A stretch of 64,000 bases of DNA, filler included, from Sanchytrium tribonematis (Eukaryota), in the NCBI GenBank assembly GCA_018985235.1. It is 12 parts of 12 records of this genome, joined end to end, with 100 filler letters (N's around TTAATTAATTAA, not from the genome) between each part and the next. Parts side by side here need not be neighbours in the genome. Positions count along the whole stretch, not along the records: positions 1 to 22,759 come from JADGIG010000079.1; positions 22,860 to 26,609 come from JADGIG010000808.1; positions 26,710 to 30,449 come from JADGIG010000809.1; positions 30,550 to 34,288 come from JADGIG010000810.1; positions 34,389 to 38,126 come from JADGIG010000811.1; positions 38,227 to 41,962 come from JADGIG010000812.1; positions 42,063 to 45,796 come from JADGIG010000813.1; positions 45,897 to 49,627 come from JADGIG010000814.1; 4 more parts are not named here. One strand, 5' to 3'. The notes under the pieces are model-generated. The model saw nothing but the letters and a program-made list of their open reading frames with translations, was not told where the DNA came from and made no database searches. The translations under genes and the position numbers were made by a program. How positions within the stretch are numbered: the stretch's first letter is position 1; each line of letters begins with the position of its first letter. Of the stretch, positions 9,236 to 62,865 are shown piece after piece.

Positions 9236-10736
9236 TCATTCAACTATCATTCCGCTCATTAGATCTTGCAAGTTAATGATTTGCTCGCTATCACCCCAAG
9301 CTTCAACTTGATTTGCAACCTCATTGTCTTCCTCCACATCTTGTAAAAATGCGTTGAATGTTTCTTCATTTTGATCCACTGTATTGAGTCTTTTTAAATT
9401 CCAAGATCTTTTCTTTAATTTCTTGGGATAAACTTTTCTTATTATTATTACATCTGGAATGTTTTCAGAATTCAAAAGTTCAAAGTCATCATTATTAAAG
9501 TTTTGATTAGTTAGATCGTAACACTCTATATTATCGCCCGGATGAAGAATATGTCCTAAATGAGTTCGGACAGTAAACATTTCATTGTCGCTGTTTCTTG
9601 CGATGCACACCGTCGAAAGTTGGTGAGAGTCTGTTGCCTGGTGATTCTCTTCAACATCTATTACATAAAATTGAACTAAATCCTTGACAATACACAGAGG
9701 GGGGAACCCACCACTCCCAAATGCAGCCTTTGATGCAGCCCCAGAAAATGCTCCTCCTTTAGCTTTAAATGAACTTTTGTGATGACCTTGAGTAGCACCT
9801 TGGACAGTTGGGTGACTACTCCAATATCGTTCTGCTGACAATTCGCTAGTTTTTAAAGTTTGAGGATCGAGTAGATGAAGCCATTTGCCCACTCTATTGA
9901 CTATGCATATTTGATTTATACCACCTAGCTTGTTTGCAAGCTGTTTTGGAAGGCATAATAAATCCAAACGACTGAGCGGAACGATTTCGACACTAAATGT
10001 TACTTTCACATTTGCTGTATTACTTTTCAAGTCAGCACTAATAATTTGATCGCTGGTTTGCATTCTTGCAGGAACAGCCTTCAAAACAAATTCAACAAAC
10101 TTCTGGGCATGGTGTTTGGTAACAAAATGCATATCCATTCCTTCCTGCTGAGGTGCTATGCCAACGCAATCCAAATGCATCTTATTTTTCAAAATTAGCT
10201 GCTCCAAAAACAACAAAGATCTTCCGTGCTTAGCGTGCTGCCTTAATTGAACATTTGCAACCCAAGTTTGCTAAGTGAATATATTTTACCTTTGCTGCAA
10301 GTTTTGTACACTGAGGGCATTGAGTGTATGCTACAATATATTCCACTAATTGAGTATGATGAACGATTGTGTTGTTCCCTATATCCTTCTCGTAAGTGAC
10401 CTTTGTTTTTATCCTCTTACTGTGTGGTTCAGTGTAAATAAATGACCCATCTAATAACTTCATATTTAGTCTTTTAAGGCACAATGTTAGCAGCTCCTTT
10501 GATTCCCACAACGCAAAAGTCCACGTAGAAGGATGCTGATGATACCTATCGCACTGCTTGCAAAATAATACGGTTTGAGTCGGAATTAGATCGCTTTGAA
10601 TTTGTGATTGTAGACATTGCATACAGGTGTTCGAAGGATTTGGTTCTATTGCTGTACCGCAGAGACAGCATAAAATTAGTTGCGTTTGATTTTCTGCTTG
10701 GTCTAGATCCATCATTTCAACATAATTGTCATTCAT
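9236..10736 (-). CDS. NMD3: 60S ribosomal export adaptor NMD3, two exons (10736-10290, 10270-9236), 493 aa
   Basis: CCLCG..IEPNPSNTC, ESKELLTLCLKRL, FIYTEPHSKRIK; splicing restores the conserved AAK|QTWVANVQLRQ...LFLEQLILK. Confidence 0.95.
10271..10289 (-). other. 19-nt spliceosomal intron in NMD3
   Basis: GTAAAATATATTCACTTAG; removal restores frame and the conserved NMD3 motif. Confidence 0.9.
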
Positions 10737-11309
10737 TTTTCTCCCTTGTTTTTTCCTAAATTTGAATTCAAAGTGTTTTTAATGTAACTTAATTTCATGC
10801 CGTCAAAATGCAGTCACTCCAATTAAATAACTGACAATTAAGTAAGATATGATATGACATCGAGACTACTATTTACTGATGTATAATCTTTGCTTTGTCC
10901 CTTAAAAATTAGAGTTCAAGAAAATTTACTAAATTTTAAACTGGCTAGTGGTATAAGTCCAATATCAATTTCTTCTGTATCAGTTGGCAGAGAAAACTTG
11001 GAATCGGTTTTAACAGTCGGTTTGAAATTCCGAATTCTTGGTTTCATCAATGATCTTGATTGTCCAAGCTTTTGAGAGATCAACTGATCTAACCAAATGA
11101 GCTAATTATTGAGCACCTTAAAAGTAGCAAATATGTTTTTGATCACATGGCAATATTTCACTTTTAATTATAAAAATTAATGCTAGAAAAGTTGAGGTTA
11201 TTTGACCATGGTCTGTCGTTTGATGATCATATTTCAAAAGCCCTTTATTGATTTAGAGTAATAAATTGTCCAAACATCAGGAAACGGCCAATTATGAGAG
11301 AATTTACTT

Positions 11310-11897
11310 TTACTGAAATAACTTGTGTCTTTCAACCATTTTCGACAGCATATCTACTTCTAAATTGACCTTGTCACCAACTTTTTTCTCAAAAAGTGCG
11401 GTATTTTCGGCAGTATGAGGAATCATCATAATAGAAAAGTTATCCTTTTGGACATTGCAAGCAGTCAAACTAACACCGTCTAAACACACAAAGCCTTTCT
11501 CGATTATGTATTTCGATCTTAATTTGTCAACGCTGAATTGGAACCATATTGAATTTTCCTCTTTAAATTTTTTTAGAATTTCCACTGTACAATCGACATG
11601 GCCTTGAACAAAGTGACCACCCATTCTGCTAGTTGCCATAAGTGCCTTCTCTAGATTGACCTTGCTACCTTTCCCTAGAGATCCTAATGAAGTGCATTTG
11701 AGAGTTTCTGGAGTTGTGTCAACTTTAAATAAATTGCTACTTTTATCTAAATATGTGACAGTCAAACAAGTACCGTTTACTGCAATACTGTCTCCAATAT
11801 TAACGTCAGCTAGATAGCCCGTTTTGACTTCGAATGTGTAAGTATAATTGCTTATCTCATTCACAATACCAAGTACTTCCACAATTCCAGTAAACAT
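11310..11897 (-). CDS. RIB5: Riboflavin synthase (alpha chain)
   Basis: MFTGIVE start, GDSIAVNGTCLTV, VNLEKAL, RMGGHFVQGHVD, KGFVCLDGVSLT, VNLEVD. Confidence 0.96.
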   Translation of the reverse strand: MFTGIVEVLGIVNEISNYTYTFEVKTGYLADVNIGDSIAVNGTCLTVTYLDKSSNLFKVDTTPETLKCTSLGSLGKGSKVNLEKALMATSRMGGHFVQGHVDCTVEILKKFKEENSIWFQFSVDKLRSKYIIEKGFVCLDGVSLTACNVQKDNFSIMMIPHTAENTALFEKKVGDKVNLEVDMLSKMVERHKLFQ

Positions 11898-12051
11898 CAA
11901 GGAGATTTGTATTTATTTTGGCAAATCCAATAAACTATTATGAGACAACGCTAGTATAAGCCTTGTGAAGTTTCATTTAAATTGGGTTGGGGGCGACTTT
12001 CAGTCACTTGTTGAAAGGGTTGAGTTGAAAGGCTTTCCGAATTTTCGAAAC

Positions 12052-15000
12052 ATGGATTTGGCACACGATAGGTGCTTGCTTTTAATTTCCTCAATATGCA
12101 ACCGAAGCAACATAGAGATAGAATTTTTTGAAAATCTATTTAGCTTTCAAAGCCATTCTAATTTAGAGCAAACCTTGTTCAACGTCGGTGCGCTTTTGAC
12201 GAACCAATTCAAGGTTTTTGAAGTTGTCAAGCATCAGCAAATTTGGACAAACTATTCGTTGGAGGAGGTTCTCAGAGAAGCATCTAAAGACCATTTTCAT
12301 AGGCTTGGTGACGTTGCAAGTGCTCACTCCGAGTCTCTATTGGTCCATTCTGTTGGATGTATGCTGCTCTCTACCAATTGTTCTTTACAGGAAGGATATG
12401 AAAATCCTGTATTAATTGCAATTTGTTCTCTTTTCCATGATATTGGTAAAATGGGAACTATTCAAACTACTGGAAATCCGAAAAATCCGGTGGTTGCCTT
12501 CTATTTTCATGCAGAAATGGGAGCGGGTATAATATCATTTTGTTTTTCTGAGAATGAATGGGTTTCATTTGCTCAGTGGCAAGATATGACTTTAGCTATT
12601 AATTTTCATATGTGCACTTATCACTCTCACAATCATGATCTCAAGCATAAACACCAACTCGCAGTCAAGGATCTTTTAGGCGATGAGGTTCGGAAAATCT
12701 TGTACTTTCTATCAATAGGAGACATGTCCTCCAGATTTCCTCGTCAAAATATTTCAAAATGGCTTGAGACTAGGCAATTAATACTCAATGATCACTCAAG
12801 TCATAGCAGTGAATATTTCTCAAAATATAGTGGAAATGGAATTTTGATACAACTTTTGGGTATGTCTGCTTCTGGAAAATCATATGCTAGGTCCAAGATT
12901 ATCGAGCAACTTAACATCTTAGGAATAGATTTCGAAAACATCGTGATTGTTGAAAGAGATAATTATGTATGTAAAATTGCAGCTGCATTTGCGGGAATAT
13001 CTTTTGATGATCAAGGCAAGACACCTTCTGGAAATCTATATAGAGAACTACATGAAATTTATAAAACCAATAAGCTTGGAGATCAAGTCAACAAGCGGAT
13101 GAAAAATGATATTCAGATCGGACTTATGGAGAACAAGATTGTAATACTTGACACTGTTGCTGTGTTGTTTGAGGCTGCTAAATTTATAATCCCGGACAGT
13201 GCTTCTATTGCTCTTAGAATTAATATTTTTGTTATCAGAGACCAATTTATGACTGAACCAGACGCACAACGATTGGGACTTTCATTGAAAGACCAAGTCT
13301 CGATTCACGGTGACAGATCGTTGCTTTTTTGGCTTCCTAGCGATTTCAAAAAAAGATACTCAAAAGGCTTACTCAGGCGAAGACAAATGGCAGGAAATTT
13401 TTATGGATCAAGTGGAGTTTCTAAGGCATTGATATCATCCGATTCCCCGATTTTAAATTTTGTAATTAAGTGGGGTTTTGAATTCAATTTACTTCCGTTT
13501 TACAAAGTCATTAAAATGGTTTATTTTTCAACGAAAAAAGTTGAAAATATATTTGATTTTGAACAAGATCTTACAGAATTGATTAACAAAGTTGAGAAAA
13601 GTTTCGGATTCGAATTTTTAAAGGAATTTTTTAATGGGCTCAATTTCTTGTTTCTGCAACCATTTAAGTCAAAAAGTATGGAGAAAGATGTTGTTATAAT
13701 TAAATACAAAGACAATTGCATGTTCTGGAAAGCGAAATGGGCTAGACAAGCAAGAGGAGCAGCCTTTGTAAGAATTTCCAATAGTTGGTTCTGCATCAAA
13801 TCATTATTACAACGTGGAGCTGAGGTTCTGACAGGAATACATGTCAAGGATGGGCTCACAGATAGTCAAGATTACCATTTAGGAAAATGTTCACATTTTG
13901 ACACAAATCAACAAGACACAATACTGAGATTTTTGAATGGCAGCGAAATTGACGGGTTATTGTCTAGTAAAGTAGATGGTAGTCTTCTCGGAATTTCAAT
14001 CATTCCCAAAACGCACAAGGCCTACGAATTTGCCAAAAAGTTATACAAATCTTTCCAGATTGCGTCCCACAATCATGTTTTAAATTTTGCAGAAAAATAT
14101 TTAGACTTTATTCCTTTGTTCTACTCTCAGGGAACTATCATGTTTGGGGAATTTATGGAAGACTGGTATTTCTGTGCTTTTTTGGTTGGTGTTTGTAGAG
14201 TTAGTCCCTTATATCTTGAAGAGTGCTTTTCGAAACAATATTCTATCGAAAAGTTAGTTCTCGAAAATATTGAGAAAATTTGTTTGTCACTGAAAGAATT
14301 TGTGAGTTTAAATCAAGAGAAAATTAAGGAAGATATTTGCTGTCTTTCTTTTGAATCCGTTTGTCCAATGAGAAAATCCATTTGGGGCCCTTCTCATACA
14401 GAACTAGCTTTGAGCTATGATGAGTACCACTGTAAATTCTTAGGTTGTACCTTTGGTGTTGGAGCAACATGTGGACAATTTGAACCTCATTTGGAAGTTA
14501 CTTTACCTGCTAAGTGGTCACAACCAACAATTTGGCAAATTAAAGAAGCTTCGCAAGTATCAAGTATGATAAAAGACGTCGAGTTGGTAATACATGAAGA
14601 TATGTCCATCAATTCATTTTTTGAAAAATATCCTCCAATTCATTCTGATGACCAAATTCTAGACTTTGAAGGATTTGTGTTTTTTAGAAAACATTCTGAT
14701 CATTACGATTATTCGAAAATTAAAACATTGGTATACTACAATGCACACAAGCCTAAAAAATCCACTATTGAATCATTAATGAAAATAAGTTCTAAAATGG
14801 CAAAATTTATTCCAAGTGTCTTGATTTTAAAGCAATATTTTGAAAATGTTGACAAATCTTTAATTGCGTTTAACAATGATATTTATGAATTACTGGTTAA
14901 AAATAATGAGATGTTGATCAAGGAAATGAAACCCAAAGCCCAGGAATCGTATTACCGCCAAAACAAAGACACACAGATTAAAATGTTGATGAATAATTGC

Positions 15001-15222: not shown

Positions 15223-15327
15223 ACTGGTATTTAATCTCAATTAATCCCTAAACGTTGATTTACCGAACCTCAATAAATCAATATACGTATACACACAATA
15301 GAACCACTTGAACTCCTTCAAACTTTT

Positions 15328-15837: not shown

Positions 15838-15839
15838 AT

Positions 15840-16355: not shown

Positions 16356-16375
16356 TTTAAGGGGCAGTATCACAA

Positions 16376-18949
16376 TCACAATTTTGTATTTATTTCTTGT
16401 AATTCAAAAATATTCATATGTTGATAGATTCTGTTTCGTTTTACCTCTGGAATCTTAACAATAGGCTTCGATGATATTTGAACTTCAAATAGTGGGTTGA
16501 TCTGGTAATCAAGCAACTCTTGGTGTATTTTAACTTGGCTTATTAATCGGCGACGATATACGAAGAGTTTCCATTTTTTCGCATATTTTCTACTGAGCCT
16601 ATTTTTACGGTATTCCTTTAATACATCAGAATCCGAATTTATGTTGATCATTAAATTCTTCCAACTCTCCAAATCAATGTTAGAATTATTATTTTCTTGC
16701 CCAATATCGTTTGGTACAGTAATTACATTGGATAGATCCCAAATGTTTTTGCCGAACATTCCAATTAATTCCATTTCAGTGGTCCAAAGTTTAACTTTCC
16801 CTTCCAAACAAGCTGTTATGTAAAAACCATTGTGATTACATATCGAGGTAATTGCAGAGTTATGAAGTTTGTAGCATTTTAAAACTGTCATGTTTGACTT
16901 TTCCACCTTAAATCCTCTCCCAAGAGAAGTACAAAGAATAAGAATGTGGTAAGAATCTGTAATATGTGTAATAAATTCTCGCTTTCTGAGATTTACCTTG
17001 GAATCTTCAATCAATTCCATGTTAATTTTGAATAAACAAATAGAGCCATCCGCATGAGCAGTCACTATGTTAGATATTCCGTTATAAAAACTTAAAATTC
17101 CAGTTGAAATAGGTGACGATTTCTTAAATTTTACAGGCTTGACACTTTTTTCCCGTATATCTATAATATACATACATTGCGAGTGTGTTGCTATGTAGAC
17201 AAAATTGTCTAGCATGAAGCTAAAAGAAATTTCTTCATTTGGTGCAAATTTAATCTGCTCAAATTGATCTGTTTCTTCTTCATCTGGATCATCGGGAAAA
17301 ATGAAAAGATTACCTGTTTTTCCAGTACATGCGACATAATGCGGTTCTGTTGAAAAATAATAAAGATTCATTACCTCAAATGTTCCGGGCAAAGTACAAG
17401 TTTTTAAAAGTTGACCATTGTTAAAATTCCAAATTTTAACTAAGCCATCTGTACTTGCAGTGATGAGTCTACGTCCACTTATATCAAAAATGAAGTGCCT
17501 TACTTCTTCCGAATGAACGTCACAAAATTTGAATATTTCATGACCAGTGTCAAAATCAAAGACTCTGACATCTTCACTGCAAGATACCACTTGGTGAAAA
17601 TTTGGGTTGTATTTGACTGAACAGAACCCTTTATGTGTACTGTCTTGAGAAATTCCATTTTGACTAGTATTGAAAAGTCTCAGATCTCGACCACCAATGA
17701 GAAAGTTTCCCTGACAAAATATAGCCGAGTTCCGCAATTGATTTGAACTGAAATCCAAATTGTCATATTGAATATACTGAATGGTCTGGCCATCATATAA
17801 TGACCATATTCGAAATTCATAATCAGCAGAAAGCGAATAACAATATGGTGCGGAAGGGTGGATTTTGAACAGAACAATTTCGGCTTTGTGTCCAGATAAA
17901 CAGGCGATTGAATTTTTCCAGATAAAGGTATTAAATAAATATATATTATTATCTCTGCATGCAATTCCTAATACATTAAACAATGCAGAAAAGTCCATAC
18001 ACAAGGCGTTGTGTTGTAAATTTAACTGAACAGTCTCGACATTTGACTCTGTACTTAAAAGTTGAGCGGTGTAAGGTGAGGTCGGAACAAGATCCAAAAC
18101 AATAAGTCGTTTAATTGTGGGTAAATAATCAATTGTATGTATCCAGGCTGACCCAGAATACTCAAGTGTAATGTGAAATACACTTTCTTTTTTGCTTTCT
18201 ATACTCGCAAAAGAATTCTTGTAGAATCCCTGTTCTTTTAATATGTTGGAAAATTTAGATAGTTTAGTCTGAAATTTCCAAATTCTACCAATGCAGGTTC
18301 CTACATATATCACAAATGTATCTTCTTCGATATAAGAGGTTAAAGATGTAGGCGAGGTGGGAAAATCAGATACATGGCAAAGATGTGTAAGTTTTGTAGC
18401 ATTTAAATTCGCAATATGAAGGGAGCGACCGTCAGTAATATAAATGACGTAATTGGGATCAGGAATGCTGGCTGAAGTTACCCATGAAGACGGTAGTTCT
18501 TTTGGGAGGTGAACATTACTTTTTATAGAATAATTTACAGAATCATAAATAATAAAGTTACCATCAAAGGCCATTATACCAATTAGGTTTTTTGAATATT
18601 GCTTCAAGTAAACAATTTGACTTGTCAGTTTTGATCTTTCTATTAGAATTTCCAAATGGCCTTCATGGTCCTGTTTTTGAGAACTACTAGCCAGAATAAA
18701 GCTAGAAAATTCCTCGAAAACGACTGTCCCATCACTGTTAGCATCTATTTTCATGAATAAACTAGTAAGCTGGTCATCATTCAGTTGCCCTTCGAGTACT
18801 TGGCCAAATACTTCTTTGAATTTCTCCAGGGGAAAACCCTCCGAACCATCTTCATTTCTATAGGCCTTGAATATCTTTGTAAGCTTCTCAAAATGTTGCA
18901 CATTTAAAATTTTCCTAACATCGAAGACTTTTTTAGGCGTATCAGACAT
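16376..18949 (-). CDS. EF-hand + WD40 repeat protein (WDR49/EFCAB8-like, probably cilia-associated)
   Basis: LFMKIDANSDGTVVFEEFSSF EF-hand; WD repeats (LSGHKAEI, RRLITASTDGLVKIWNFNNGQ, LHNSAITS...VKLW). Confidence 0.8.
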   Translation of the reverse strand: MSDTPKKVFDVRKILNVQHFEKLTKIFKAYRNEDGSEGFPLEKFKEVFGQVLEGQLNDDQLTSLFMKIDANSDGTVVFEEFSSFILASSSQKQDHEGHLEILIERSKLTSQIVYLKQYSKNLIGIMAFDGNFIIYDSVNYSIKSNVHLPKELPSSWVTSASIPDPNYVIYITDGRSLHIANLNATKLTHLCHVSDFPTSPTSLTSYIEEDTFVIYVGTCIGRIWKFQTKLSKFSNILKEQGFYKNSFASIESKKESVFHITLEYSGSAWIHTIDYLPTIKRLIVLDLVPTSPYTAQLLSTESNVETVQLNLQHNALCMDFSALFNVLGIACRDNNIYLFNTFIWKNSIACLSGHKAEIVLFKIHPSAPYCYSLSADYEFRIWSLYDGQTIQYIQYDNLDFSSNQLRNSAIFCQGNFLIGGRDLRLFNTSQNGISQDSTHKGFCSVKYNPNFHQVVSCSEDVRVFDFDTGHEIFKFCDVHSEEVRHFIFDISGRRLITASTDGLVKIWNFNNGQLLKTCTLPGTFEVMNLYYFSTEPHYVACTGKTGNLFIFPDDPDEEETDQFEQIKFAPNEEISFSFMLDNFVYIATHSQCMYIIDIREKSVKPVKFKKSSPISTGILSFYNGISNIVTAHADGSICLFKINMELIEDSKVNLRKREFITHITDSYHILILCTSLGRGFKVEKSNMTVLKCYKLHNSAITSICNHNGFYITACLEGKVKLWTTEMELIGMFGKNIWDLSNVITVPNDIGQENNNSNIDLESWKNLMININSDSDVLKEYRKNRLSRKYAKKWKLFVYRRRLISQVKIHQELLDYQINPLFEVQISSKPIVKIPEVKRNRIYQHMNIFELQEINTKL

Positions 18950-28369: not shown

Positions 28370-29348
28370 TTATTGAATAACTGCAATTTTTAATGATTCT
28401 TTGCGCATATAAGATGGATCTACAGGTAATGATTGATTCGATTCTTTAATTTGTTTGAGTAAACTATCGATATTCTTGGAATAAGTGGGATAATCCGTTG
28501 GAACACGTTCTATAGTATGGTGTTTACCAGGCATTAAATTACCCATGATTTCTTGTTCAACAGAGGCTGTTTGTGGCTATATTAATATATATTACATTCT
28601 CTATTTTATTACGTAATTCGATAATGGCAGCATCACGTCGTTCTTGAGGGATTTCTTCTTCTTTAGAAATCTTACCATCTCGTAAAGTGATGACTTTACT
28701 TGCGAAATTCTTTAAATAGACATCGTGGGTAACCATAATCATGGTCATATTCTTTTCTTGATTTAATCTGACCAATAAATCAATGACTTTTAATGTATTA
28801 TTCGTATCTAAATCACCAGTGGGTTCATCTAATAATAACAAGTCGGGATCATTACTAATGGCTCTGGCAATGGTTGTTCTCTGCATTTCTCCTCCTGACA
28901 TTTGATTTGGATAGTGATTTAATCTTTCACCCAGTCCCATTAAAGATAAATCATCAATCGCCTTCTTTTTACGCTCATTGACACTTAATTTACCTTTTAA
29001 TTCCATTGGAAGTGTGACATTCTCTAATGCTGTCATATTACCGAGTAAATTAAAAGTTTGAAAGACAAAACCCATTTTATGAAGACGAAGATACGCTAAT
29101 ACTTCATCTTTTGTAGCAGAATTGACTACTGTATTGCATATCTTCAATTCTCCCTTTGTAGGTCTGTCAATAGTCCCAATACAGTTTAATAATGAACTTT
29201 TACCTCCTCCAGAATTACCATAAATGATGAGCCAGTCTCCTCTAGCTACTTTTAAATTAATACCTCTTAGTGCTGGTACGCCCTCTATACCTAGTAAATA
29301 TGTCTTGTGAATATTAATTAATTCCACGATAGTCTCTCTTTTAGACAT
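28370..29348 (-). CDS. Stand-alone LolD/MacB-type ABC ATPase (AbcH-like), two exons (29348-28596, 28576-28370), 319 aa
   Basis: GNSGGGKS Walker A, GFVFQTFNL, HYPNQMSGGEMQR, LLLLDEPTGDLD, MVTHD; 19-nt intron extends the frame by 69 codons. Confidence 0.9.
28577..28595 (-). other. 19-nt intron in the ABC ATPase gene
   Basis: GTAATATATATTAATATAG; fits the consensus and opens the downstream exon PQTASVEQ...TDYPTY. Confidence 0.75.
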
Positions 29349-29419
29349 TTTTAGAATTTTACAAGCCACTTGATATTGACAGAAATTGGTTGAAATTGGT
29401 ATTTATTGAATTAAGGACA

Positions 29420-30381
29420 TTAAAATACACTTCCTATACTCTCAAACCAGTTAATAAATGTGGTATCTCTTTGTAATACCTTGTAAAATTCATCATAAGT
29501 AATAATCTCTTTTTTAAAAACCCGTTCAACAATTTCATCAGTCGCACTTTGACTAATTAAATCAATTGGGGGTGAAATAGGACTAGTACTTTTTGGTATA
29601 GCAGCATTAAACAGTGAACTAATGGGTTTATCTGTCCCCAAATCCGTATTTTGCAAATCATGCATTCCTAAATAAATTCATGTATACCGTGCAAAACATC
29701 TCTGACCATGGTCTGACTCAGCTTCACATACGCTTTAATCATAAATCCCATATCTTGCTTGCTAATAAACCCATCATTGTCCACATCGTACGCATCAAAA
29801 CACATTTTAGATTTCTCCATTAAATTCCCTCTGCATAAAATGCTTAATCCACTGACAAACTCAATAAATGTCAACTTATTGTCTTTATCCATATCCCATG
29901 CCTTGAATAACCGATCTACCAATAAATTCCTTTCTAATCCAAATGGGCCCACGCAACTCAAAAAGATCTCATTTGTAATCACATTGCTTTCTGCTACAGA
30001 ATTAAACTGTTTACTCAATGATTTCACTTCTAAATATGAGAAATGAGTGGCATATGTCAAATAAATCAAATCTTCTTCAGTAATTTCATTATTTTTACCA
30101 TGATAAAATGGACGTAATAAAGAGAGACGAGGATTGATTAATGGTGGAATTGGAATGGTGATTCTTCCAAAGATGTGATTGGAATTATGGGTGTCATGCT
30201 GTAAACAATTAGAGCAAGTATCATAATCTTCACAATTTAAGCATTTAAATCGAATTCCTTTGACGGGTGATTGACCACATGAATTGCAAGTAATACCACG
30301 ATGAATAATGGACTCTTTTTCAGCTTGATCTTTGGCTACCAAGTGAAAACATTCTAATAATTTATCAAGATGGGATTGCAT
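29420..30381 (-). CDS. ZZ zinc finger + NCS1/recoverin-like EF-hand protein, two exons (30381-29688, 29667-29420), 313 aa
   Basis: HRGITCNSC...GIRFKCLNCEDYDTC ZZ finger; EF-hands DMDKDNKLTFIEF and YDVDNDGFIS; exons joined by a 20-nt intron. Confidence 0.88.
29668..29687 (-). other. 20-nt intron in the ZZ/EF-hand gene
   Basis: GTATACATGAATTTATTTAG, phase 1, joins ...VLH-G-MHDLQ. Confidence 0.82.
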
Positions 30382-37300: not shown

Positions 37301-38126
37301 TTTTAATATTTGTGATTTATTCTGCCATTCTACCAAGTATTTGTTGATATATTGACTAAATTCATTCTCAAATGTGCTTAATAGCATGGAAATAGTCTTT
37401 TTGATGTGCGTGCCCACATAATTCTTAAAATTCCTAGTATCCAATTTAACCCACCCATCTATAAATAATTCATTCTTCAGATCTTTTATTTGCACTTGCA
37501 ATTGCTGTAATTTGTCCAATTCCAAATGCACCGTGTTTGCTTTCAACACAGATTCAATAAATTGCTGTTTTGGTATTTTCCATATAAATTCATAAATGAG
37601 TAGTTCTTTAATAAACTGGTTGCCACTTACTTGCACTAATTGGATATTATTCATAATTTGAGACTGTAAATCCACTACATCAGAATATTCTGAAATCATT
37701 TGAAATACTTGTAATTCTTCATCATCTCCAAATAATGTCACATTTTTACATATATTTAGCATGTAATTGATAATAGATTGTATGAAATCAACCAATTCCT
37801 CATTAAAATTGGGTTTTACTTTAATATCATGATTAAAAACATCGACAATGATTTCCATAAATACATCAGAATCCCTTGTGGTATTGGCAAATAATAATGA
37901 GAGTGATTTAATGACATATTGGTGCATCTGATTTACTAATAATTCATCTAAATGGCTGTAAAATAAAGAATAGTCATGTTTTAGTATTTCCTGTAAATGG
38001 GTTAATTTTGATTTGAATTTGATGAAACTAGATTGAATTGATTGAGTAATTTGATTGAATTTATCACCCACATCTTGAATATCTACGCATTTCTTAACAG
38101 CATCGAGCACTAAATGATTCTGCCAT
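34389..38126 (-). CDS. Axonemal dynein heavy chain (outer-arm beta, DNAH9/11/17-like), internal fragment
   Basis: FPRFYFIS, YEYLGNTPRLVVTPLTDRCY, GPAGTGKTET, VYVFNCSEQMDY, WGCFDEFNRISVEVLSV, TMNPGYAGRAELP, HYDWGLRA; open at both contig ends. Confidence 0.93.
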
Positions 38127-44198: not shown

Positions 44199-45780
44199 TT
44201 ATTTTTTAGATTTACGAGTTGAAATGTGCGATATAGATATATTAGGATCAAATCGAGCTGAAGTGTAGTCCACTGATAACCTGGACTTGAAGGAATTTAT
44301 CGTAACATCTAAACAGGATAATTCAGGAATTGTAATGCAGTCATTGTCACATTTTAGCCTCCAAGTGGCATCTAAACTTTCTTCAAGTATTGCCATTTCA
44401 TGAGCATATATTTCGCAATGCGCATATTTGGTAAGCAAATTAAAAAACAATCTACCAGTTTCTACATCCCTAGAATTGATACAATGTTTAATTGAAAAAA
44501 AGACGTCTTCAATTCGCAAATGGTCCTTAGTTAGTAAATTGTACCTCTGGATTGCTACAATGAAGGGCAATCGAAAAATGCTTAAGTGCATTAACAGAGT
44601 CATTTAAATTTTTGTATGCAATGCCCACATTATTTGCAAAATGTGGAGAGTTTTGCAAATTGAATGCAGATAAAGCGAATTTGAGCATTTCTTCGTAATG
44701 TTCCAAATATCCATGACATTCACTTAAGGCCAAATAAAATCGGGCATCGAAAGGTCGCTTTTCTACAAGTTTATCATAAAATTGAATAGCGCGACTATAA
44801 AATCTTGATTTTTCATTGAAGTATCCGAGAGCATAGAGAACCCGGTAGTCGTTTTCATCTATTCTATATGCAGTGTAATAGCATTCCAAAGCTTCGGATT
44901 TTTCATCGAAATTATAATACTCAAATCCCATAAGCAGATAAGGTAGTGGATCCTTTGGTTGCAGCCTCGAAGCCATTTGAAACATTTCTATACTTTTGGT
45001 ATGATTTTCATTCAAACTATAGTAATTTCCAAGAACAAGATAGCATTTGTAATCTTTTGGTAGTATTGAGATACGATCTACTAGATCAGACATTTCTTGG
45101 TATTCCAAACTCGCGAAGTACCGATGTGAAAATATATCGGCAAAATCCTTAAAGAACAGCGAATTTTTCACACCTTTGATATTTTCGTCGGTATGAATCT
45201 CAAGATTTTGATTTGCATAAAATGCTGCAGCCAAAGTTGAAACGTAAGAATTGCTTCGATAAGATTTTATAAAATCTTGAAGTCTCTCATATGGAACGTA
45301 AATTTGTCTCTTAGCTCCTAAGAAAAGTAAAGACAATGACTTCATAAAACATTCGAGGTCTTTTGTATAATTGTTAAAACTTTCCAGATCAGGAACAAAT
45401 GTAGCAAACAATCTCCAAATTAGGAAATTGGCGCGTCCACTTTGCCACAAGCAATTTGCCAGCAATGATAACCCTTCTTTTAAAGACCCACTTTCGATCA
45501 AAATTTTAGATCTTAGGTATATTATGTATGGATCATCCTTACAACATTTTACAAGAATTTCGCTCTGTGATAAAAGTTTGTCAGTCCACACCGACTGCTT
45601 TACCAAAGTAAGCATTGTGGAATTTAGTTCATATAAGCTGGTCAGGGAAAAGTAATGTTCCATAGATGTTTTGCAAGGCATTCGTAATAAAATTTGGTAT
45701 TTTTTGGACAAAAATAAAGACCTTCTTTCCGTGTAGGTTATAGTAAGGTTTGAAATAGGTTCTTTAATAAAAGTTGCCAT
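44199..45780 (-). CDS. CDC23: Anaphase-promoting complex subunit APC8/CDC23 (TPR), two exons (45780-44545, 44525-44199); may extend 5' past the contig end
   Basis: LGNYYSL..NHTKSIEMFQMASRL...LLMGFEY...DYRVLYALG...RPFDARF matches CDC23 TPRs. Confidence 0.85.
44526..44544 (-). other. 19-nt intron in CDC23 with a perfect TACTAAC branch box
   Basis: GTACAATTTACTAACTAAG, phase 0, joins ...SNPE|DHLRIED. Confidence 0.88.
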
Positions 45781-46605: not shown

Positions 46606-48997
46606 ATGAAAAGTTATGATTTCTATATTCCAGAAAATTTTATCAGACATATATCAAAAAAAAAGAATAGTCCTAGTAACATTATTTGTGGTAGTCAGCG
46701 ACCAAATTTTGACAATTATAATTGGAAAGATGGACTCGAATTATTCCAAAAACAGATGGGGGTTTATTTTGAATATTTTGATATTCAAATAGACGATCAA
46801 TTTTACGCAAGTGTAGCAGTATTAGGACAGGCTATTAAATGGACTAATTTACAATGGTCTTACGAAGATAAGCAAAGGGTTGAAAATTATTGGGAAAGTA
46901 TCTGGAAAGGAATTGAAGATCAAAAAAAACCGGATGCCATCAAGTCACACATTAATGACAACTTTACTTCTACCACGATTCTGTCTCTTGAGATTCTTGA
47001 TCTTGCAATCAAGAAATGCGTCAATGACGGAAAGTATGACGCTTATTGTTTGGAAGGTTACTTGTTCAATGAAAACTATTTTACGTTAATTTATAATTAT
47101 AAGCTTGAACTTGTAGAAAACAAGATAATCACAAAATTTAAAAATCAAGGATCACATTCATTGGCTACAAATCGGAACACCTTAAAAGTCAATTTCGATG
47201 TAGATTATAAATTAATTTCAGGCAACAGTTGCAGTATATTTGAATGGAGTGATAATTCACCTGAAAAAGCTGACAAAATATTGAAATATTTAGATCAAAG
47301 AACGACGTTACTTTTGGTAAATAGTGTTCTGTCGTATAATATAGAAATAATATTGAGAGTCATCAAATTGGATTTAGAACTTTATTTTCATGATGTGTCG
47401 GGACTAAATACAGTAATTACGAAACTGGTGGCCATTGTGATTTTTAATCTGTTAAAGATTAACAAGGCTTCAGTGGCATATTTGCGATCATTTAAAGAAT
47501 TTGATTTCAAAAGTTCAAATTTTGATCACTTTTTAAACCAATTCGAGTGTTTTTGGTTCAATTTAGAGTGGAATACAGTTCAGCGTGGTAAGTTTAAAAA
47601 ATTAATATCAGGCTTTGGTATTTTGGATAGTTCATTCTACTATGAGGATTATGATGAAATTTTATTTCAAGGATGGAACATTGCCGATCAATTAATACAT
47701 GAACAGAGATTTAGCAGTATTAATCGCATATTTAGCACTTCTCAATTTAAAATATTTGAACTGTACTCTAATTTTTTGGAAATATTTGATGTAGGTTTAA
47801 GTAATTGGTACAAATGGTTTTTATTTTGCGTATTTCTCTTTACGAATAGTGAGAAGGCCGACTACCACAAAACTAGGACAAAAAGTATTTTTTATTAATG
47901 GAGTTCGTAACTTATTAAACTCGGTAATGATTTTTGGGTACACCTTGGATGTGCTTTTAAAATTAGAAAAGCTGAATTTAGAACTAACAGATGCTGCGAA
48001 AAAAATCGACAATTTAGTGTATCTCCAGAATGTATTTTTAAAAAAAAAGAAAACCAAATCATATTGGCGCTTAAAAAGAGATTATGTGGGTCTATTTTTT
48101 AAGATTCTCGTGATTATATTAACTGCATTATCAATAATAGGATTGACATTCATGATCAAGGACAAATTTGACGGTACAGAGCAAAAAGCTTTAATATTTG
48201 TTATGCCGCTTGTCACTACGATATTCCTATTTTGGCAATGTTTTCATGTTTGTTTTTACAGTTTTTGGAAAGAATTCAGCATAAAAACTGAGGATATTGA
48301 TTCTGATATAAGTCTCATACACCCTACTAATTTGATTTCCACTAGTACAATTAACATATATTTTCAAATGGGATTGAATGGTATTGAGTATGAAATGCGA
48401 CAAATTAGAATCGCAAATATCAAAGTAAAACACAAACATTATGTCTACATAGATCATGATGAGCAGTTCCAATATGTGTCTATAGCCTATATTATATTGT
48501 TGGTATATTCCGCCATCTCTTTCGCAAATCTTTGTGGCGGTGATTTGCCCCAAACTTTCAAACCAAACGTCACAGACGACTATGCAGATTGGAATAAGAC
48601 AATCACAAGTAACTATCCTGTCGACAAACAATATCTCTTATTTGACAAATCATGTCATTACTATCTTAATATTCCTAATTCGAATTATTCCCAGCAATCT
48701 GAATCTGTTGAAAGAATGAAAAACATGGCTTTCACAATTGGCTTTCTTTCACCCCTGGCAGTATCTAATAATCTTATTGCTTCTGTAAGTATTTTGGCTG
48801 CATTTGCGTCATATTTTTATTGGCACCAGGAAAAATCAAACTCAAACAAATTCAGAACAAAATTCAAGAAAATGTCGGAACTCATTGAAAGCGGATTAGA
48901 AACAGACGAATGCATTAAGATGGTGCTTATTTTAATACTGGAAGACAAATTATTTCCAAGCAATAGTTTTTCACTTTACAATGGTAGAAAGGGATAA
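46606..48997 (+). CDS. Orphan ~790-aa protein with C-terminal TM helices, probably two exons (46606-47884, 47904-48997)
   Basis: Two long ORFs joined in frame by a 19-nt candidate intron; degenerate coding-like sequence continues to about 49296. Confidence 0.55.
47885..47903 (+). other. 19-nt candidate intron with a GAG acceptor
   Basis: GTATTTTTTATTAATGGAG; ATTAAT box with A at -6; phase 1 gives ...TK-I-RNLLN. Confidence 0.6.
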
Positions 48998-50667: not shown

Positions 50668-50668
50668 A

Positions 50669-53556: not shown

Positions 53557-55848
53557 TGGAAAAAGAACAACGAAATAACCGAAGAGATTCTAGACCAAGC
53601 AGCGGAAGAGGAATTTCAGGTTGACAAAATTATTGGCCATAGAGTGGAAGTGAACGATGGCAAGGCTTTTATTATGTACAATGTGAAATGGCTGTCTTTT
53701 CCTCAGCCAAGTGAAGAACCAGAAGCAAATGAGACTATTTCTGACTTTTTGGAGGAATATTATGCTCAGCGAAATATTAGTGCAGAGGATTTTAAGAAGA
53801 AAGTCTTTATGGATGTCTTCATGGATGTTGTACCTGGTTATAAATTATTGCTTGAGAAAACTACTTCTTTAAGAGTTCCGGTTGTATCGTTTAAATGCAG
53901 GTGGAAGCAAAGTAGTAATTTCGTTGTAACGAATGAAACAAATCGCACTTTAACTACGAAATGCATAAGAGAAATCGTGGAAAATACCCTTGGCTTTACA
54001 TTTGTAGAAAAAATGTATGAGCTACTACAACATGAAATTTCTGTCATTTTGCGTCACAAGAATCTTAATTCTCGAAAGCTAGAATTCACCGTAAAGATGA
54101 CTTCCCAAAAGGCACCAGTTGTGCTGTCTGAGAAATATGTTATACACACAACCGCTCTCGAAAAATATTTAGCTGATAAGAAATTAGATAAAATTGAAGA
54201 TTTGAAAATTAAAGAAGTATCTTCGACCTTAAAGGAGTCAAATAAAAGAAAAATATTGGGAAGCGAGAGTCGCAATTTTAAGAGGCCAAAACAAGAAGAG
54301 GATATAGAAATGCAGGAGCTAATTTCAAACTTCAAAATCAATAAGTCTGTTCCACAAAATTCAAAATCGGAATCCCAGACAGCTCATATTCAAGCAAATC
54401 TAATCCCGCCAGATAACATTAAATTGTCCTCAAAAGTCGAGCTTAATGAATCTATTTTGAAAAAGAGAAATGTAGAATTTTCAATATCAAAAGAAGTGAA
54501 AGAGGAGAAGCCGTCAATGGCTCAAATTCAAAAATCAAATGCTAATTTAGAACCTTCAGATTTGTTTTTAAAAGATTCAAAGTCTCAAGTGGAAAACAAA
54601 GAAGAGAAACTTTGGCGAGACTGCGGGTCGAAAGATTTTGCTCAGCTTTTGGCTTGTATAAAGATGCCGAATATATTGGGGAATGACAATTTGTCACAAT
54701 CAAGCTATAGTAGGCGCTATAGAAAAGTTCTTAAAACCAGCTATTCTCAAATTATTCCTTTTTTGGTTCAGACCACATATAGCGGAATGCAACGACTAAA
54801 ACGCCACGCAGATAAAAGTAGCATATTGGTATTGAGTTTTGATTATATGGTCGAAAAACCAGTCTTTCTTAACTTGATGTCAGAATACAAAAATAATTTG
54901 CTATTTTTCAAGTTGAAGGAGATGAATGCTGTAGGTCCTGATACTTTAGATTCTCTTATTTATGACAATTACGTTGCTGTAGATTCATTTCAAAGTAAAA
55001 CTTCCTTTACATTCCATGTTAAATTGGAAACAATTAAGTCTGTTGACACTGTGTACCAGAAAGTCCCACTAGAATGGCGCAATGATAAGACCATTTTTAT
55101 TTACTTAATGCTCTCCTTTAATGACAATGGCTCCAAATTTAAAGATTTATTTAGTTTAATGGGAAACAGCTTCAAACAAAAAAGTTCATCTCCAAAACTT
55201 ATTAAAATCGTCAACGAATTAGATTTAGAAGACCAAAAAGATATTTTGGAAAATGTTTTTTTTGACAACTTATTAGACAAATTGGGAATTTATGAGAATG
55301 TTTTTGTATACGGCTGTACATTTGAATCTATACAAATCTCACAATTGCTACGTGAAAATGAAATAGAATTGTCTGATGAATCTGTTGATAAAGCTTCAAC
55401 TGCGGTGGTGATTAATCACACTGAAAAGATTGAATTGTTGAAGCAGTCGAAATTTAGGCTTGCCAAAAATGTTTTTTCCTACAGATTAGAACGAACAGGT
55501 TTCAAATTGGAGCGATTAAACTCAAATCCGTTGATTTACATAGAATCTGAGTTTTTGATTTCAAAAACTGAAAGTGCGCTACAATTCATTGAAGCTAATC
55601 CACAATGTCAATTTCTAGCTTTCCATAGAACAATTCTCAAGTTGACCAAAAAACAGAAAGAAAAAGTAATGCTATTATGCTTTGAAGAAAAAATCCATCG
55701 TATTTTTAAAGATGACAATCTCCTACAGGTGCTAGAATATTTTTTAGAAAATACGTATACTAATTTAAGTGTCTTGGGCGAATCAGACACATTTTTACAA
55801 AATGATATAGCAAAATATCAAAATATTATGTTTATTCGTACAATCTAG
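53557..55848 (+). CDS. Chromodomain protein, 5'-truncated (possibly Chp1-like)
   Basis: Frame open from the contig edge: EEEFQVDKIIGHR...YNVKWLSFPQPSEEPEAN chromodomain followed by a long C-terminal region. Confidence 0.65.
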   Translation, partial: WKKNNEITEEILDQAAEEEFQVDKIIGHRVEVNDGKAFIMYNVKWLSFPQPSEEPEANETISDFLEEYYAQRNISAEDFKKKVFMDVFMDVVPGYKLLLEKTTSLRVPVVSFKCRWKQSSNFVVTNETNRTLTTKCIREIVENTLGFTFVEKMYELLQHEISVILRHKNLNSRKLEFTVKMTSQKAPVVLSEKYVIHTTALEKYLADKKLDKIEDLKIKEVSSTLKESNKRKILGSESRNFKRPKQEEDIEMQELISNFKINKSVPQNSKSESQTAHIQANLIPPDNIKLSSKVELNESILKKRNVEFSISKEVKEEKPSMAQIQKSNANLEPSDLFLKDSKSQVENKEEKLWRDCGSKDFAQLLACIKMPNILGNDNLSQSSYSRRYRKVLKTSYSQIIPFLVQTTYSGMQRLKRHADKSSILVLSFDYMVEKPVFLNLMSEYKNNLLFFKLKEMNAVGPDTLDSLIYDNYVAVDSFQSKTSFTFHVKLETIKSVDTVYQKVPLEWRNDKTIFIYLMLSFNDNGSKFKDLFSLMGNSFKQKSSSPKLIKIVNELDLEDQKDILENVFFDNLLDKLGIYENVFVYGCTFESIQISQLLRENEIELSDESVDKASTAVVINHTEKIELLKQSKFRLAKNVFSYRLERTGFKLERLNSNPLIYIESEFLISKTESALQFIEANPQCQFLAFHRTILKLTKKQKEKVMLLCFEEKIHRIFKDDNLLQVLEYFLENTYTNLSVLGESDTFLQNDIAKYQNIMFIRTI

Positions 55849-56984
55849 CCAACTGCATGGCGCTTGTCTGGACGTAGTTGATTGCCACTCCAGTTTGCTC
55901 ATTAATTAGATCTTCTTGGTCGGGGTTGGAGTATTGTATGCTGTGTTGCAGTAAGACTCTTATGCAATTAATAACATACGATTCGACCAACTCCTTATCT
56001 AAAGAAAAGTCCTTTTCTATCCATAGCTGCCCGATCAGCAATAAATTATTGCAAACAGCTTCTAAATGAGTTTGAATTACCAGATCCTTGGCATAAAAAT
56101 TTGAAAAAATCCTCAATTTTTTCACATTTTGGCACTTGTAATGTTAAAGGCTTAGCATTTGCAATTTTGGAATGAACTTTATCCAATAAATCTGATTGAA
56201 TGTCATCCTCATCCAAAGCAGTTTCTAAAAGCTGATCAACATCCCAGTTTAAGGAAGATTTGGAAGCGGTTACTAGTTTTCCTATGTTTTCGATATGTTC
56301 TTTTCCTTTTATATAAGTAAAATAAGTCTCCATATCTTTAAACTCTGTTTCTGTTGCTTTAACAACAGGAATTTTCTTTTGCTTTGGGGTGATTTCGTAG
56401 ACATTCTTACCAATTCCTTCTAACGTATCTATGGAAACATCCATTAGTTTAGAGGAAAGACCAACAACAGTATTTTTTAAATCTGAGCTTTGATTTTTCT
56501 TAACTTGTGCTGGTATCTCGTTTTGTGGTTTTAAAACCTCTTTCTCCGACTGCGGCTGTGGTATTATGGAACTTCTGCTCTTTTCTCCAGAAACAGATGG
56601 ATCCGGCGGTGAAAGTCCTATATTTTGAGTTAGTGACTTGGTGGTTTCAAAACCTTTATAGAGAGCGTTTCCCACAAAATCACTGGCGAAATCAAAGCCT
56701 TTGTCGACATAAGATAGAACATTTTCAGTTGTATCCATTAAATTTTTAGCTTCAAATTTTGGGGATTTGCGCGAATCTGAATTACTTTCCGAATCTAACT
56801 CTTTTTTGGGAGAACCTTCTCTTTCAGCATATTCTGGATCCAATTGCGAATACGCCAAGTCTATCGTGTCTTCAGCAACATGCTTAATTTGAGATGATAT
56901 TGTTGAGACACTATTCCAGAAAGACCAACCACCTTGATTGTCAGCATTTTCTATTGGAGGAATTTGTTTGTCATTTTCATTCAT
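55832..56984 (-). CDS. FAM114-like protein, two exons (56984-56081, 56061-55832), 377 aa
   Basis: GGWSFWNS N-terminus and SIDTLEGIGKNVYEI resemble FAM114; joined by a 19-nt intron. Confidence 0.6.
56062..56080 (-). other. 19-nt intron in the FAM114-like gene
   Basis: GTAATTCAAACTCATTTAG, phase 1, joins CQGS-E-AVCNNLL. Confidence 0.82.
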
Positions 56985-58183: not shown

Positions 58184-58296
58184 GTTATTGCCACGTCATT
58201 ATAATTTCAATCAAATGCGTGTACTACGAGGATTGATCACAAATATCCTTGTGAAATGAAATGACACAATTTCAAATCACAAGTCATTTCCCCTTG

Positions 58297-59193: not shown

Positions 59194-59211
59194 TTATATT
59201 TACTATTTACA

Positions 59212-61084
59212 TTAAGCAGTGAATTCACTAGTGGCTCGATTTTTCAATTGTAATTTAAATGGCGTTTTAGAAGCAACAATCCCAACCAACATGGCATTTA
59301 AACACAATTTAATCGTGTAAATGGGAGACCAAATGAATTGATATGGTTGTACTTTCCATTGATATGCATGAATTACTGGTAAATCTGAAGAGATTTGAGC
59401 ATTTGTGGCAATGATTTGAGATGTTAAAACAGTCATTTGAGTACTTTGACTATTCATACGCGTAGGGCCTAAATAAATTGGAAATACGAGTAACTAGAGT
59501 AACATCTACTTGTAATGCTACAGTTTGGGTGTCTTCTCGAGTCTCCAGTTCAGTTGTATTCTTCAAAGTGGTCCATTTTGAATCAGTCTTTTGCAATTTC
59601 GTGGTTGTTGGATTAAATGTTTTACTTGGAATGTAATAGGTGTGATTAACATCCAATGGGACAATCCCACATGTCGTATTGTTACTTGAATACACATCAT
59701 CCAAATTGCAATAATTGTAAAATGTTTTACCAAACACTCCAGGTGCCATTGGATTGTTGCTCACATCACATGAAATCAAATTTGTTGGATCAACCATAGA
59801 CACATCTGTAATTTGATTATTCTGCATATGCAATTGACTTGGACTTGCGAATGAGAAAGCACCACTCAAGAAATTATTATTCAAGTCAAATGAATATCCA
59901 GTAAATTGGAAATTGATACACCCACTCAATTGGTTATATGATAAATCCAAATAACCAACATTTTGAAGTGAAATCGGGATACTTCCAGTGAATAAATTAT
60001 GGGACATGTTCAAGAATTCTGGTGAAATACTTGGAATATTGCCCATTAAAGAATTACATGACAAATCTAACCATGATAATGTACTAAATAAACCACTAGT
60101 AATATTACCGCTCAATGAATTACCAGCTAATCCAAAAGCGGTAATAGATTGAGGCAATGAAATTGGAAGTTTCTTAAATTGATTGAAACTCAAATGCAAA
60201 TACATGACTTTAGAATAGCTCATATCTATATTACCCGATAATAAATTGTAAGAAAAGTCTACCGTATAATAAGAAATTGAACTCAGCACTGGTAAATTTC
60301 CTGTAAATAAATTCCATGATAAAACTATATCTTTTAAATTTGTCAATGAAGTGAAATTTGAGATGCTACCACTCAGCATATTATAAGACAATTGAAACGA
60401 AGACAACAAGGGCGGCAATTGTGTTGGGAGACTACCTTTTAATTGATTAAATTCCAATTTCAAATATGATAGCGAATTTGGTAAATATTTTAATGTTCCA
60501 TTCAACTGGTTATTATCCAAAGATAACAGATTCAAAGTTGAAGATATATTGCTAATATCACCATAAATCAAATTATGACTCGCAACAAAGCTAGTTAAAG
60601 TTTTTGGAAATATATTTGGTAATTTATCAAATATCACATTATAAGAAATATCAAACGTTTGCAAGGTAGGTGGCAATTGAGGCATTGAAGTGAGCATATT
60701 TTGACTCAAATATATCTTTACGGTATGAGATGGAAATGACTTGGGCATTCCACTTAATAGATTTTGACGTAAATCTAATTCACTTAATTGGGGATGGCAA
60801 AGTCTCAGGAATAGCGCCATAAAGTAAATTATTATAAAGTGTCAGATATCGGATTGAATTTGGCAAGTCATTTGGAATGGTGGTACTTAATGCCGTATTG
60901 TAAATCATTAAAGTTTGTAAATTGGAAGGAATAAATTGACTTTTGATTTCACCGTCAATATTAACACTATACATATAAATATAAGTCACAAAATCGCCTG
61001 TACATTTTATTCCAAGTTCGCCTAATTTCCATACGATGGATGTTTGGCAGCAGTCGATTGGAACTTTTTTATAAAAATAGGGAT
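59212..61084 (-). CDS. LRR receptor-like membrane protein, 5'-truncated, with a +1 frameshift at 60790-60793 and a 19-nt intron
   Basis: DCC cap, many LxxLxLxxNxLxGxIP repeats, Thr-rich stalk, C-terminal TM ending KTPF. Confidence 0.75.
59469..59487 (-). other. 19-nt intron in the LRR gene
   Basis: GTATTTCCAATTTATTTAG, phase 1, joins TLVT-R-PTRMNSQ. Confidence 0.82.
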
Positions 61085-61390
61085 NNNNNNNNNNNNNNNN
61101 NNNNNNNNNNNNNNNNNNNNNNNNNNNNTTAATTAATTAANNNNNNNNNNNNNNNNNNNNNNNNNNNNNNNNNNNNNNNNNNNNCAAATAAAGCAGCATC
61201 ATTTGTGAATGACTCGCTCATCCTTTTGAATCAAAATCAAGATCCTTCGATTGGTCAATTATATCATGTGCAAGCATTGCATTTAACAGAGTTCAAATCA
61301 CCTAGTCTCTTTACCAGCCGAACAAACCTCGACTTGCAGTCAAATGGATCTTTGTTTTAAAAAATATTTGCAATGTCAAATCTATATTTA

Positions 61391-62865
61391 TTAGCTCAAC
61401 GCACTTATTTTTGGATTGTGAGTTCTTGTTGTTCTATTAATAGGTGTTTTAGCCAATACAAATCCAAAAAATATCAAATTGATCCCAATTTTACAAACTT
61501 GTCCAATTCCAAATTATACTTCGAATCCCCTCAAATGACCAGTCCATTTAGCCATCGTGGCTACAGTAGATAGCAATTGACTCTTGAATTCACTTGGTCT
61601 CACTCTAGAACTGACAATTGCTTCTGATGTATATAGTTTTGTGGTATAAAATTGACCTAAATAAAAAACAATTTACGTGTTTTCAAGGTTATTGATGCGT
61701 CAAGCACCTCGCTCGTTATTGAATGATACGCATCTGTAGTCTGGTAATTTGATAGAGTTGTCACAAATGACAATTGAGTGGCAAATGTCTGTTGATTTGA
61801 AACTGATTTTAAAATACATTGGTGATCCCAACTGCTGTTAAACAACCCCGTTGTACCACATTTAGACGCAAATGGTAGTTTATTTATGATTTGCAATAGC
61901 GGATTGTTGTCTAAATAACAATCTGTCATTCTAGAATCATCAAAAATGGTCACATTGGTGAATTGATTGTCATTCAAGTACATTTCCATGGGTTGTTGGA
62001 TCGCAATAGGTCTTTTCAACTGATTATAACTCAAGCTACAATAAGTACAATTTAAAGTAGCATTCAAACAACCTGTGAATTGGTTGGAACATCCAGTTAC
62101 TGTAATAATGAAAATGGAAATGCACCACTAAATCGATTTGAGCCAATGTGGATATGATTAACAGTTGCAGGCCATTTATTTGGTAATTCACCCGTAAATA
62201 AATTATTAAAGATTCTAAATGATTGCAATTGGGCTGGTAATCGTGAGATATTTCCAGTCAACAAATTGGATCCCAAATTGATGTTTTGCACTGAATCTGG
62301 AAAACAATTGATAGTTCCATTTAATTGATTAAATGTTGCATCAAATACTGTTAAATTGCTTGAAAATGTGGTAGGAAGAGGCCCAGATATCTTGTTATCA
62401 AAAACATTAATTTCCTTGATTGAATTGGGAAAATCTGGCATTGGTCCAACCAGTTTGTTAAATTGTGCACTAAAATAGCTTAAATTACCTGGTAATGTAC
62501 TAGGAATAGCACCACTAAGCACATTGTGGTCTAAACTCAGCGTGACGAGTGATTCGGGTAAATTACCTGGAATTTTACTCTTTAAAAGTGATTTCTAGTG
62601 TTTGGATATTCAAAGGGAGTGCAGTTCCATTTATAGTCCCATTTATATTCAAATTCTGCAATTTTAGAGATGTGATTGTGGTTGAATTGCAGGTGATGGA
62701 GATTTCCTTGTTAATACTTTGGTACCCGCAACAATTACCAGGTAGGATTTTGTATATTGAATTATCTCTCGTATTCATATTCAAATATCTGAGGAAACTC
62801 ATGATAAAAGGACAATCTGTAGCGTTTAACATGAAAAACAGAAATTGAGTTAAAACTAGTTTCAT
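61391..62865 (-). pseudogene. LRR receptor-like pseudogene, paralog of 59212-61084
   Basis: Signal + DCP...NCC cap from ATG 62865; frameshifts near 62590 and 62095; in-frame TAA at 61514-61516; C-terminal TM ending KTPI. Confidence 0.75.
61657..61676 (-). other. 20-nt intron in the LRR pseudogene
   Basis: GTAAATTGTTTTTTATTTAG, phase 1 within an Arg codon in the stalk, as in the paralog. Confidence 0.72.

Follow-up and report, generated by a model that had tools for sequence, protein, structure and literature searches.

The introns of the ciliate Stentor are 15-16 nucleotides (nt) long, start with GUA, are AU-rich and carry a putative branch adenosine at position 10/11, i.e., at -6, which leaves a 5-nt tail (PMC9505925). 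Here we describe eight GT-AG segments of 19-20 nt in a 64,000-nt stretch of joined contigs (the window) of the sanchytrid Sanchytrium tribonematis (GCA_018985235.1). Judged by their sequence, these segments are very probably U2-type spliceosomal introns of a sanchytrid, a fungus that parasitises algae. As in Stentor, they start with GTA, are AT-rich, have A at -6 and a 5-nt tail, and fall into two adjacent length classes, with length varying upstream of the branch adenosine. In contrast to Stentor, they measure 19-20 rather than 15-16 nt, the predicted loop would be 14-15 rather than 10-11 nt, and a Y-T-N-A-Y motif is kept where Stentor has no strong branch consensus; with a ciliate on one side and a fungus on the other, the likeness would be convergent. 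The segments may thus be seen as Stentor-like introns with four bases added, and we would file them as U2-type.

In Yarrowia lipolytica the spacing between branch point and AG is fixed at 2 nt, hence an adenosine at -6 (PMC2483917). This fungus resembles the window segments in having its branch motif 2 nt before the AG and no pyrimidine tract, but its introns are long with a strong ACTAAC, whereas here the whole intron would be 19-20 nt and the motif is degenerate. The -6 adenosine, which an initial annotation of this DNA had singled out, occurs in all eight segments but is not novel, since Stentor and Yarrowia already have it. Encephalitozoon cuniculi, a reduced fungal-related parasite, has GT-AG introns of about 25 nt (PMC6349667), a few dozen per genome, with a strong GTAAGT donor (PMC6349667, PMC2483917) and a TAAYTT-type branch hexamer that resembles the 3' end seen here. 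In contrast, the window holds eight candidates in 63 kb (0.13 per kb), none with G at +5, and neither the microsporidian-type donor nor a length of about 25 nt was found among them.

Two further lineages come close in length. Mikrocytos mackini has introns of 16 and 17 nt with conserved sequence and low density (PMC10245619); two adjacent lengths, a conserved sequence, low density and parasitism are shared with the present case, but Mikrocytos is a rhizarian, its introns are shorter and its spliceosome is strongly reduced, whereas the sanchytrid Amoeboradix gromovi annotates many splicing factors. Chlorarachniophyte nucleomorph introns are about 19 nt (PMC2483917), with no motif described beyond GU-AG (PMC6009652). 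The comparison with nucleomorphs made in the initial annotation is apt for length, and also for the GT(A) donor, but not for architecture, as those introns are motif-free, very dense and housed in a relic algal nucleus, whereas a branch motif is present here. Myxobolids and dicyemids are likewise parasitic opisthokonts whose introns are ultra-short and whose splice motifs are reduced, but their medians of 22-27 bp (PMC13644364) are longer and the organisms are animals.

Results

Sequence Features of the Eight Segments

The window consists of 12 contigs joined by N spacers, has a GC content of 33% and contains tightly packed eukaryotic genes. All eight strings listed in the initial annotation were recovered at their positions, on seven of the 12 contigs rather than six. 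Seven segments lie on the minus strand and one (47885-47903) on the plus strand, and in every case excision fuses two long stop-free frames. The reported column counts were reproduced, with GTA, Y(-9), T(-8), A(-6) and Y(-5) in 8/8 and A(-10) in 7/8, which places YTNAY at -9 to -5 in every segment. GC content within the segments is 0.11-0.26. None of the donors has G at +5, and none of the segments carries the U12-type extended donor, RTATCCTT.

With GTA...AG ends as the sole requirement, eight distinct frame breaks were mended at 19-20 nt; pairs of neighbouring lengths between 10 and 60 nt, excluding those with 19 or 20, mended 0-3 each. The interior of the segments (-11 to -3) holds 6.11 bits of information against 2.40 ± 0.53 in shuffled interiors, and none of 20,000 shuffles reached 6.11. 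The two invariant columns, A(-6) and T(-8), have P 0.0018, and the one perfect TACTAAC reported in this register was indeed found, in the CDC23 segment. The motif is present in 3 of 176 other GTA...AG 19/20-mers in the window. As it was read off the same eight segments, a test on other sequences was required, and the ABC-H genes of relatives (below) provided it. Of the motif matches, 6 of 11 with a length of 19 nt and 3 of 7 with a length of 20 nt fuse frames, but just 1 of 176 does so at other lengths from 12 to 40 nt; one of the frame-fusing 20-nt matches lies antisense to a 1092-codon open reading frame (ORF) and is attributed to chance. Two motif matches of 18 or 21 nt are in frame in the window, but they sit in what we take to be conserved lipase and cyclophilin motifs and were not accepted as introns. 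The claim that the window has no longer intron agrees with our search, in which none convincing was found; a broad scan of the window for GT-AG joins without the motif was swamped by chance joins. Codon bias was best in the joined frame for seven of the eight second exons, the exception being 56062, and Rfam gave no matches in the window.

Three Putative Introns Placed by Homology

Homology fixes three of the eight putative introns, those in NMD3, in an ABC transporter H-type (ABC-H) ATPase gene and in a ZZ zinc finger/EF-hand gene. A search with NMD3 returned two near clusters at 81% and 76% identity before a fall to 39% (Sorochytrium); one near cluster includes A. gromovi (phylum Sanchytriomycota), whose NMD3 is 84% identical to that of the window.

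The ABC-H gene (28370-29348, minus strand) would contain a 19-nt, phase 0 intron at 28577-28595, at a site common to four relatives. In all four of these sanchytrid proteins (85-89% identical, one being from A. gromovi) homology to the family ends at the window's intron codon and is followed by Val, a residue found at the break column in 7 of 95 other ABC-H homologues. Exon 2 in the window encodes an R.P.DY.TYS-like motif that is common to the full-length proteins of Sorochytrium, Blastocladiella and Spizellomyces. We back-translated the tails that follow the break and found that the three with enough residues for a full test each fit GT...YTNAYnnAG at a single length within 12-30 nt, namely 20 for P0130, 19 for P0131 and 19 for P0133; a tail would fit by chance with a probability of about 0.025, which rises to about 0.10 once an AG at 19/20 is assumed. 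In P0131 and P0133 the encoded residue leaves A as the sole choice at -6, G at +5 is permitted by the second codon in none of the four relatives, and introns of 20 nt have their additional base upstream of the branch site in both the window and P0130. An ungapped shifted-frame test was uninformative (23 against a shuffle mean of 21), and an exact-run test was used instead. Read in its +1 frame, the P0133 tail could code for an unbroken run of 14 residues from exon 2 of the window (150 shuffles averaged 4.7 and reached at most 7), with 19 as the sole AG-compatible length in 12-30 that yields the exon 2 frame; the same test gave nothing for the short tails of P0130 and P0131.

A record from beyond the sanchytrids bears on the age of this site. 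P0140 is identical over 282 residues to P0142, which clusters with the anaerobic gut fungus Neocallimastix californiae, and then continues from the same ungapped column with a Val-initiated tail of 24 residues, 22 of which can use AT-only codons. Judged from its protein, this single gene model may run on into a phase 0 intron at that site with a length of at least about 70 nt. If so, the ABC-H intron would be of old fungal origin and would probably have become shorter in sanchytrids.

In NMD3 (9236-10736, minus strand) the putative intron at 10271-10289 is 19 nt long and in phase 0. In the alignment with four unbroken sanchytrid homologues, exon 1 runs to column 171 and exon 2 resumes at column 172, so that no gap is left after excision. 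The segment is kept in one ungapped contig of X1 at a depth of 204; X1 may be the source of the window DNA, and its agreement is not independent. In the NMD3 tree, which has a long root branch, the window forms the sister branch to the four relatives that lack the intron (support 95/89), a topology compatible with either gain or loss. Among the best 80 of 408 metagenome loci, which are 31-41% identical, biased to unbroken genes and include no sanchytrid, no intron was found at the window's position: the site is ungapped in 54, and the other 26 have a small insertion in the protein, a table 11 stop or a different nearby intron. NMD3 fragments among 117 homologues gave no recurrent break at the intron site. 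Two fungal loci (L043, L044) have an apparent intron some 4-5 codons upstream, at a different position. All sanchytrid NMD3 proteins also carry a 35-residue Gly/Ala/Lys-rich insertion (columns 324-358; window about 9760-9870, minus strand) not seen in the four other fungi aligned.

The ZZ/EF-hand gene (29420-30381, minus strand) has a putative 20-nt, phase 1 intron at 29668-29687, and its spliced product is collinear with, and aligns gap-free to, four relatives that are uninterrupted at the site. NMD3 and ZZ/EF-hand are single ORFs in A. gromovi and several other relatives, on contigs of 15-38 kb, and the two introns are therefore not there. Each is missing from four relatives, and either gain in this lineage or loss in the relatives would account for this; the ZZ/EF-hand tree gave no supported fork. 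P0128 and P0133 both come from 5801-base records, which suggests that ABC-H and ZZ/EF-hand are adjacent in that organism as in the window (28370-30381). This organism has the ABC-H break and lacks the ZZ/EF-hand intron, and its ZZ/EF-hand protein is the one nearest to that of the window, at 89% across 125 residues. An origin by tandem exon duplication was considered and not adopted: flank identities were 3-11 of 19-20 over 16 comparisons. The best of these, the ZZ/EF-hand intron against the next 20 exon bases (11/20 identical), is a possible trace of tandem duplication that is not significant alone.

Candidates Placed by Motif and Frame

The remaining five candidates follow from motif and frame. 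In CDC23 (44199 to the contig end at 45796, minus strand) the 19-nt, phase 0 segment at 44526-44544 is the one with the perfect TACTAAC. Exon 1 of this gene aligns with human CDC23 as far as residue 455 of 597 (E 2e-16), and for exon 2, which has no PDB match, codon bias supports the joined frame. The plus-strand candidate at 47885-47903 (19 nt, phase 1, GAG acceptor) lies in a gene of no known family (46606-48997) that has no relatives among 1.84 billion representatives. The 19-nt, phase 1 candidate at 56062-56080 lies in a weakly DUF719-like gene (55832-56984, minus strand); a tandem AG follows 3 nt downstream, exon 2 has no early Met, and codon bias in the joined frame is not above that of another frame. 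Two leucine-rich repeat (LRR) genes on the minus strand contain a 19-nt, phase 1 candidate at 59469-59487, with codon bias in agreement, and a 20-nt, phase 1 candidate at 61657-61676; when the two paralogues are aligned, which they do weakly, the candidates share their columns. None of the ten X1 joints listed skips 59469-59487, and no listed piece spans this segment fully. Pfam searches of the second exons gave sub-threshold matches only.

The LRR family is multicopy, with a summed depth of up to 2127, and breaks at 60780-60841, 62097-62127 and 62575-62594 (minus strand) in two of its genes are mended by no 19-20-nt motif segment. Elsewhere in the window, a dynein heavy chain fragment (34391-38125, minus strand) runs intron-free over 1245 codons, and a Tc1/Tc3-like transposase piece lies at a contig end (57373-57864, minus strand), with divergent copies among X1 contigs. 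At 12081-12438 and 17822-18021 two X1 variants with dense substitutions occur at about 2:1 depth, which suggests heterozygosity or mixed strains.

Discussion

On the reading that the segments are U2-type introns, a weak donor (GTA, never with G at +5) would be joined through a linker of 2-3 nt to a branch helix at -11 to -5 whose sequence is a degenerate form of TACTAAC. Branching at the -6 adenosine, the predicted branch point, would form a 14- or 15-nt loop and leave a 5-nt tail, and the first AG past the branch adenosine would be used. The one-base length difference would lie between donor and branch site, with branch-to-AG spacing fixed and total length kept near a steric minimum. The special ruler-like spliceosome of the initial annotation stays hypothetical. 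A tail of 5 nt leaves no room for the polypyrimidine tract whose absence the initial annotation mentioned, and U2AF subunits are still annotated in A. gromovi. The wider inventory, which is that of the published A. gromovi annotation rather than of the window's own genome, includes Prp8, SF3B1, both U2AF subunits, BBP, U1-70K, Prp22, Dbr1, Cwc25 and Isy1. Slu7, Prp18 and Yju2 gave no match by name or KEGG number in part of A. gromovi supplementary file 4, a weak negative given fast-diverging proteins and the splitting of intron-bearing genes. In yeast, Slu7 and Prp18 are dispensable at short branch-to-AG distance, with which their non-detection is weakly compatible.

Several observations weigh against the intron reading, or at least against its reach. 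Five of the eight candidates depend mainly on motif and frame; at 47885 the two halves may belong to separate neighbouring genes, with a Met seven codons into exon 2, and both LRR genes contain further frame breaks. A sense-strand 19-nt GTA...AG match to the motif lies at 3737-3755 (plus strand) in an ORC5-like ORF, where excision would disrupt the frame, which suggests that the motif by itself is not sufficient for splicing; this ORF is short (325 codons), with its Pfam match confined to the C-terminal domain. The introns of the ABC-H relatives were decoded from protein tails rather than DNA, and the P0131 tail resembles that of the window and is not independent. The A. gromovi tail (P0132) has four residues and a stop; it fits 20 nt with a 0.85 chance of fitting, and would suit a genuine stop codon or an in-frame segment of 15 nt as well. 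Among 1024 end combinations, one other than GTA...AG, namely AAA...GT, also mended eight breaks, and 32 scored at least 5. The splice-site ends by themselves are not decisive, and it is the interior motif that decides.

That chance tie is what an explanation by assembly or amplification errors, or by pseudogenising insertions, with GT-AG segments chosen post hoc, would draw on. True breaks of this kind do occur in the window: the break at 60791 is a 1-nt difference, the base being absent from one X1 contig (depth 55 of 78), and the last LRR gene has two more near 62110 and 62580. We nevertheless consider errors a very improbable source of the segments as a set, because the same ABC-H codon is interrupted in all four relatives, the NMD3 and ZZ/EF-hand junctions match homologues to the residue, and the interior information exceeds that of every shuffle. 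NMD3 is moreover an essential gene, and its segment stands in the deep X1 contig, non-independent as that is. Errors may be the true explanation for one or two of the five candidates without homology. A different objection would accept the introns and move the branch point, with branching elsewhere or at variable sites and the -6 adenosine reflecting AT richness or a protein-binding 3' motif. The match to TACTAAC is indeed just 3-5 of 7 in seven of the eight segments, and nucleomorph introns of equal length are spliced well without an apparent motif (PMC6009652). We regard this as improbable, given the perfect TACTAAC in the same register in CDC23, the invariance of A(-6) and T(-8), the adenosine that the encoded residue dictates in P0131 and P0133, and the same register in Stentor and Yarrowia.

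Removal outside the spliceosome seems least credible of all. Fungal HAC1 has an intron of about 20 nt that is cleaved by Ire1 and tRNA ligase, and the segments are near such short HAC1 introns in length; ribosomal bypass would be another route. Against both stand the uniform GT...AG ends and branch-like motif across unrelated genes, the spliceosome core and debranching enzyme annotated in A. gromovi, and the coincidence of the ABC-H site with the apparent long intron of a gut fungus. The U2-type reading remains the one we favour, and the organism being a fungus, intron shrinkage would be independent of that in ciliates and nucleomorphs, in keeping with the separate origin proposed initially. 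A bolder version, in which a sanchytrid spliceosome works at Stentor geometry on introns of 19-20 nt only, possibly without Slu7 and Prp18, and is still gaining introns of the same size (NMD3, ZZ/EF-hand), is tentative and, as a whole, rather doubtful.

In open-access literature on sanchytrid introns and splicing and on ultra-short fungal introns, most of it judged from listings, no report of such introns in sanchytrids was found. The available text of the sanchytrid genome paper has no instance of 'splic' and one of 'intron', in a reference title (PMC8371127), and that of PMC10459994 has introns only in a reference. What appears new is the GUA/-6 A architecture at 19-20 nt in a fungal phylum with proteomes called intron-free, at a length that, from the sequences, would be shorter than that of the fungal introns we found described.

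The two published sanchytrid proteomes were called by TransDecoder on genomic contigs (PMC8371127), and intron-bearing genes would therefore be split or truncated. The initial annotation had expected standard gene finders to split such genes, and the halves of the window's NMD3, ABC-H and ZZ/EF-hand genes are indeed separate entries in the public protein set; intron-blind calling would likewise have truncated A. gromovi ABC-H. Were the bolder version above to hold, opisthokonts would have no shorter class of introns, and the precise gain of micro-introns would call for a new explanation. The questions of minimum intron length and of how a spliceosome loops 14-15 nt have so far come from ciliates, mikrocytids and nucleomorphs; they would now be posed in the kingdom of the yeast models, where introns and factors are directly swappable, and a fungal case with GUA and A(-6) points to a common steric floor for branch-to-AG spacing. 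Provided that the window is representative, one would expect hundreds to about 1,400 such introns in a genome of 10-11 Mb, with a possible bearing on the counts of gene losses and lineage-specific genes for the phylum.

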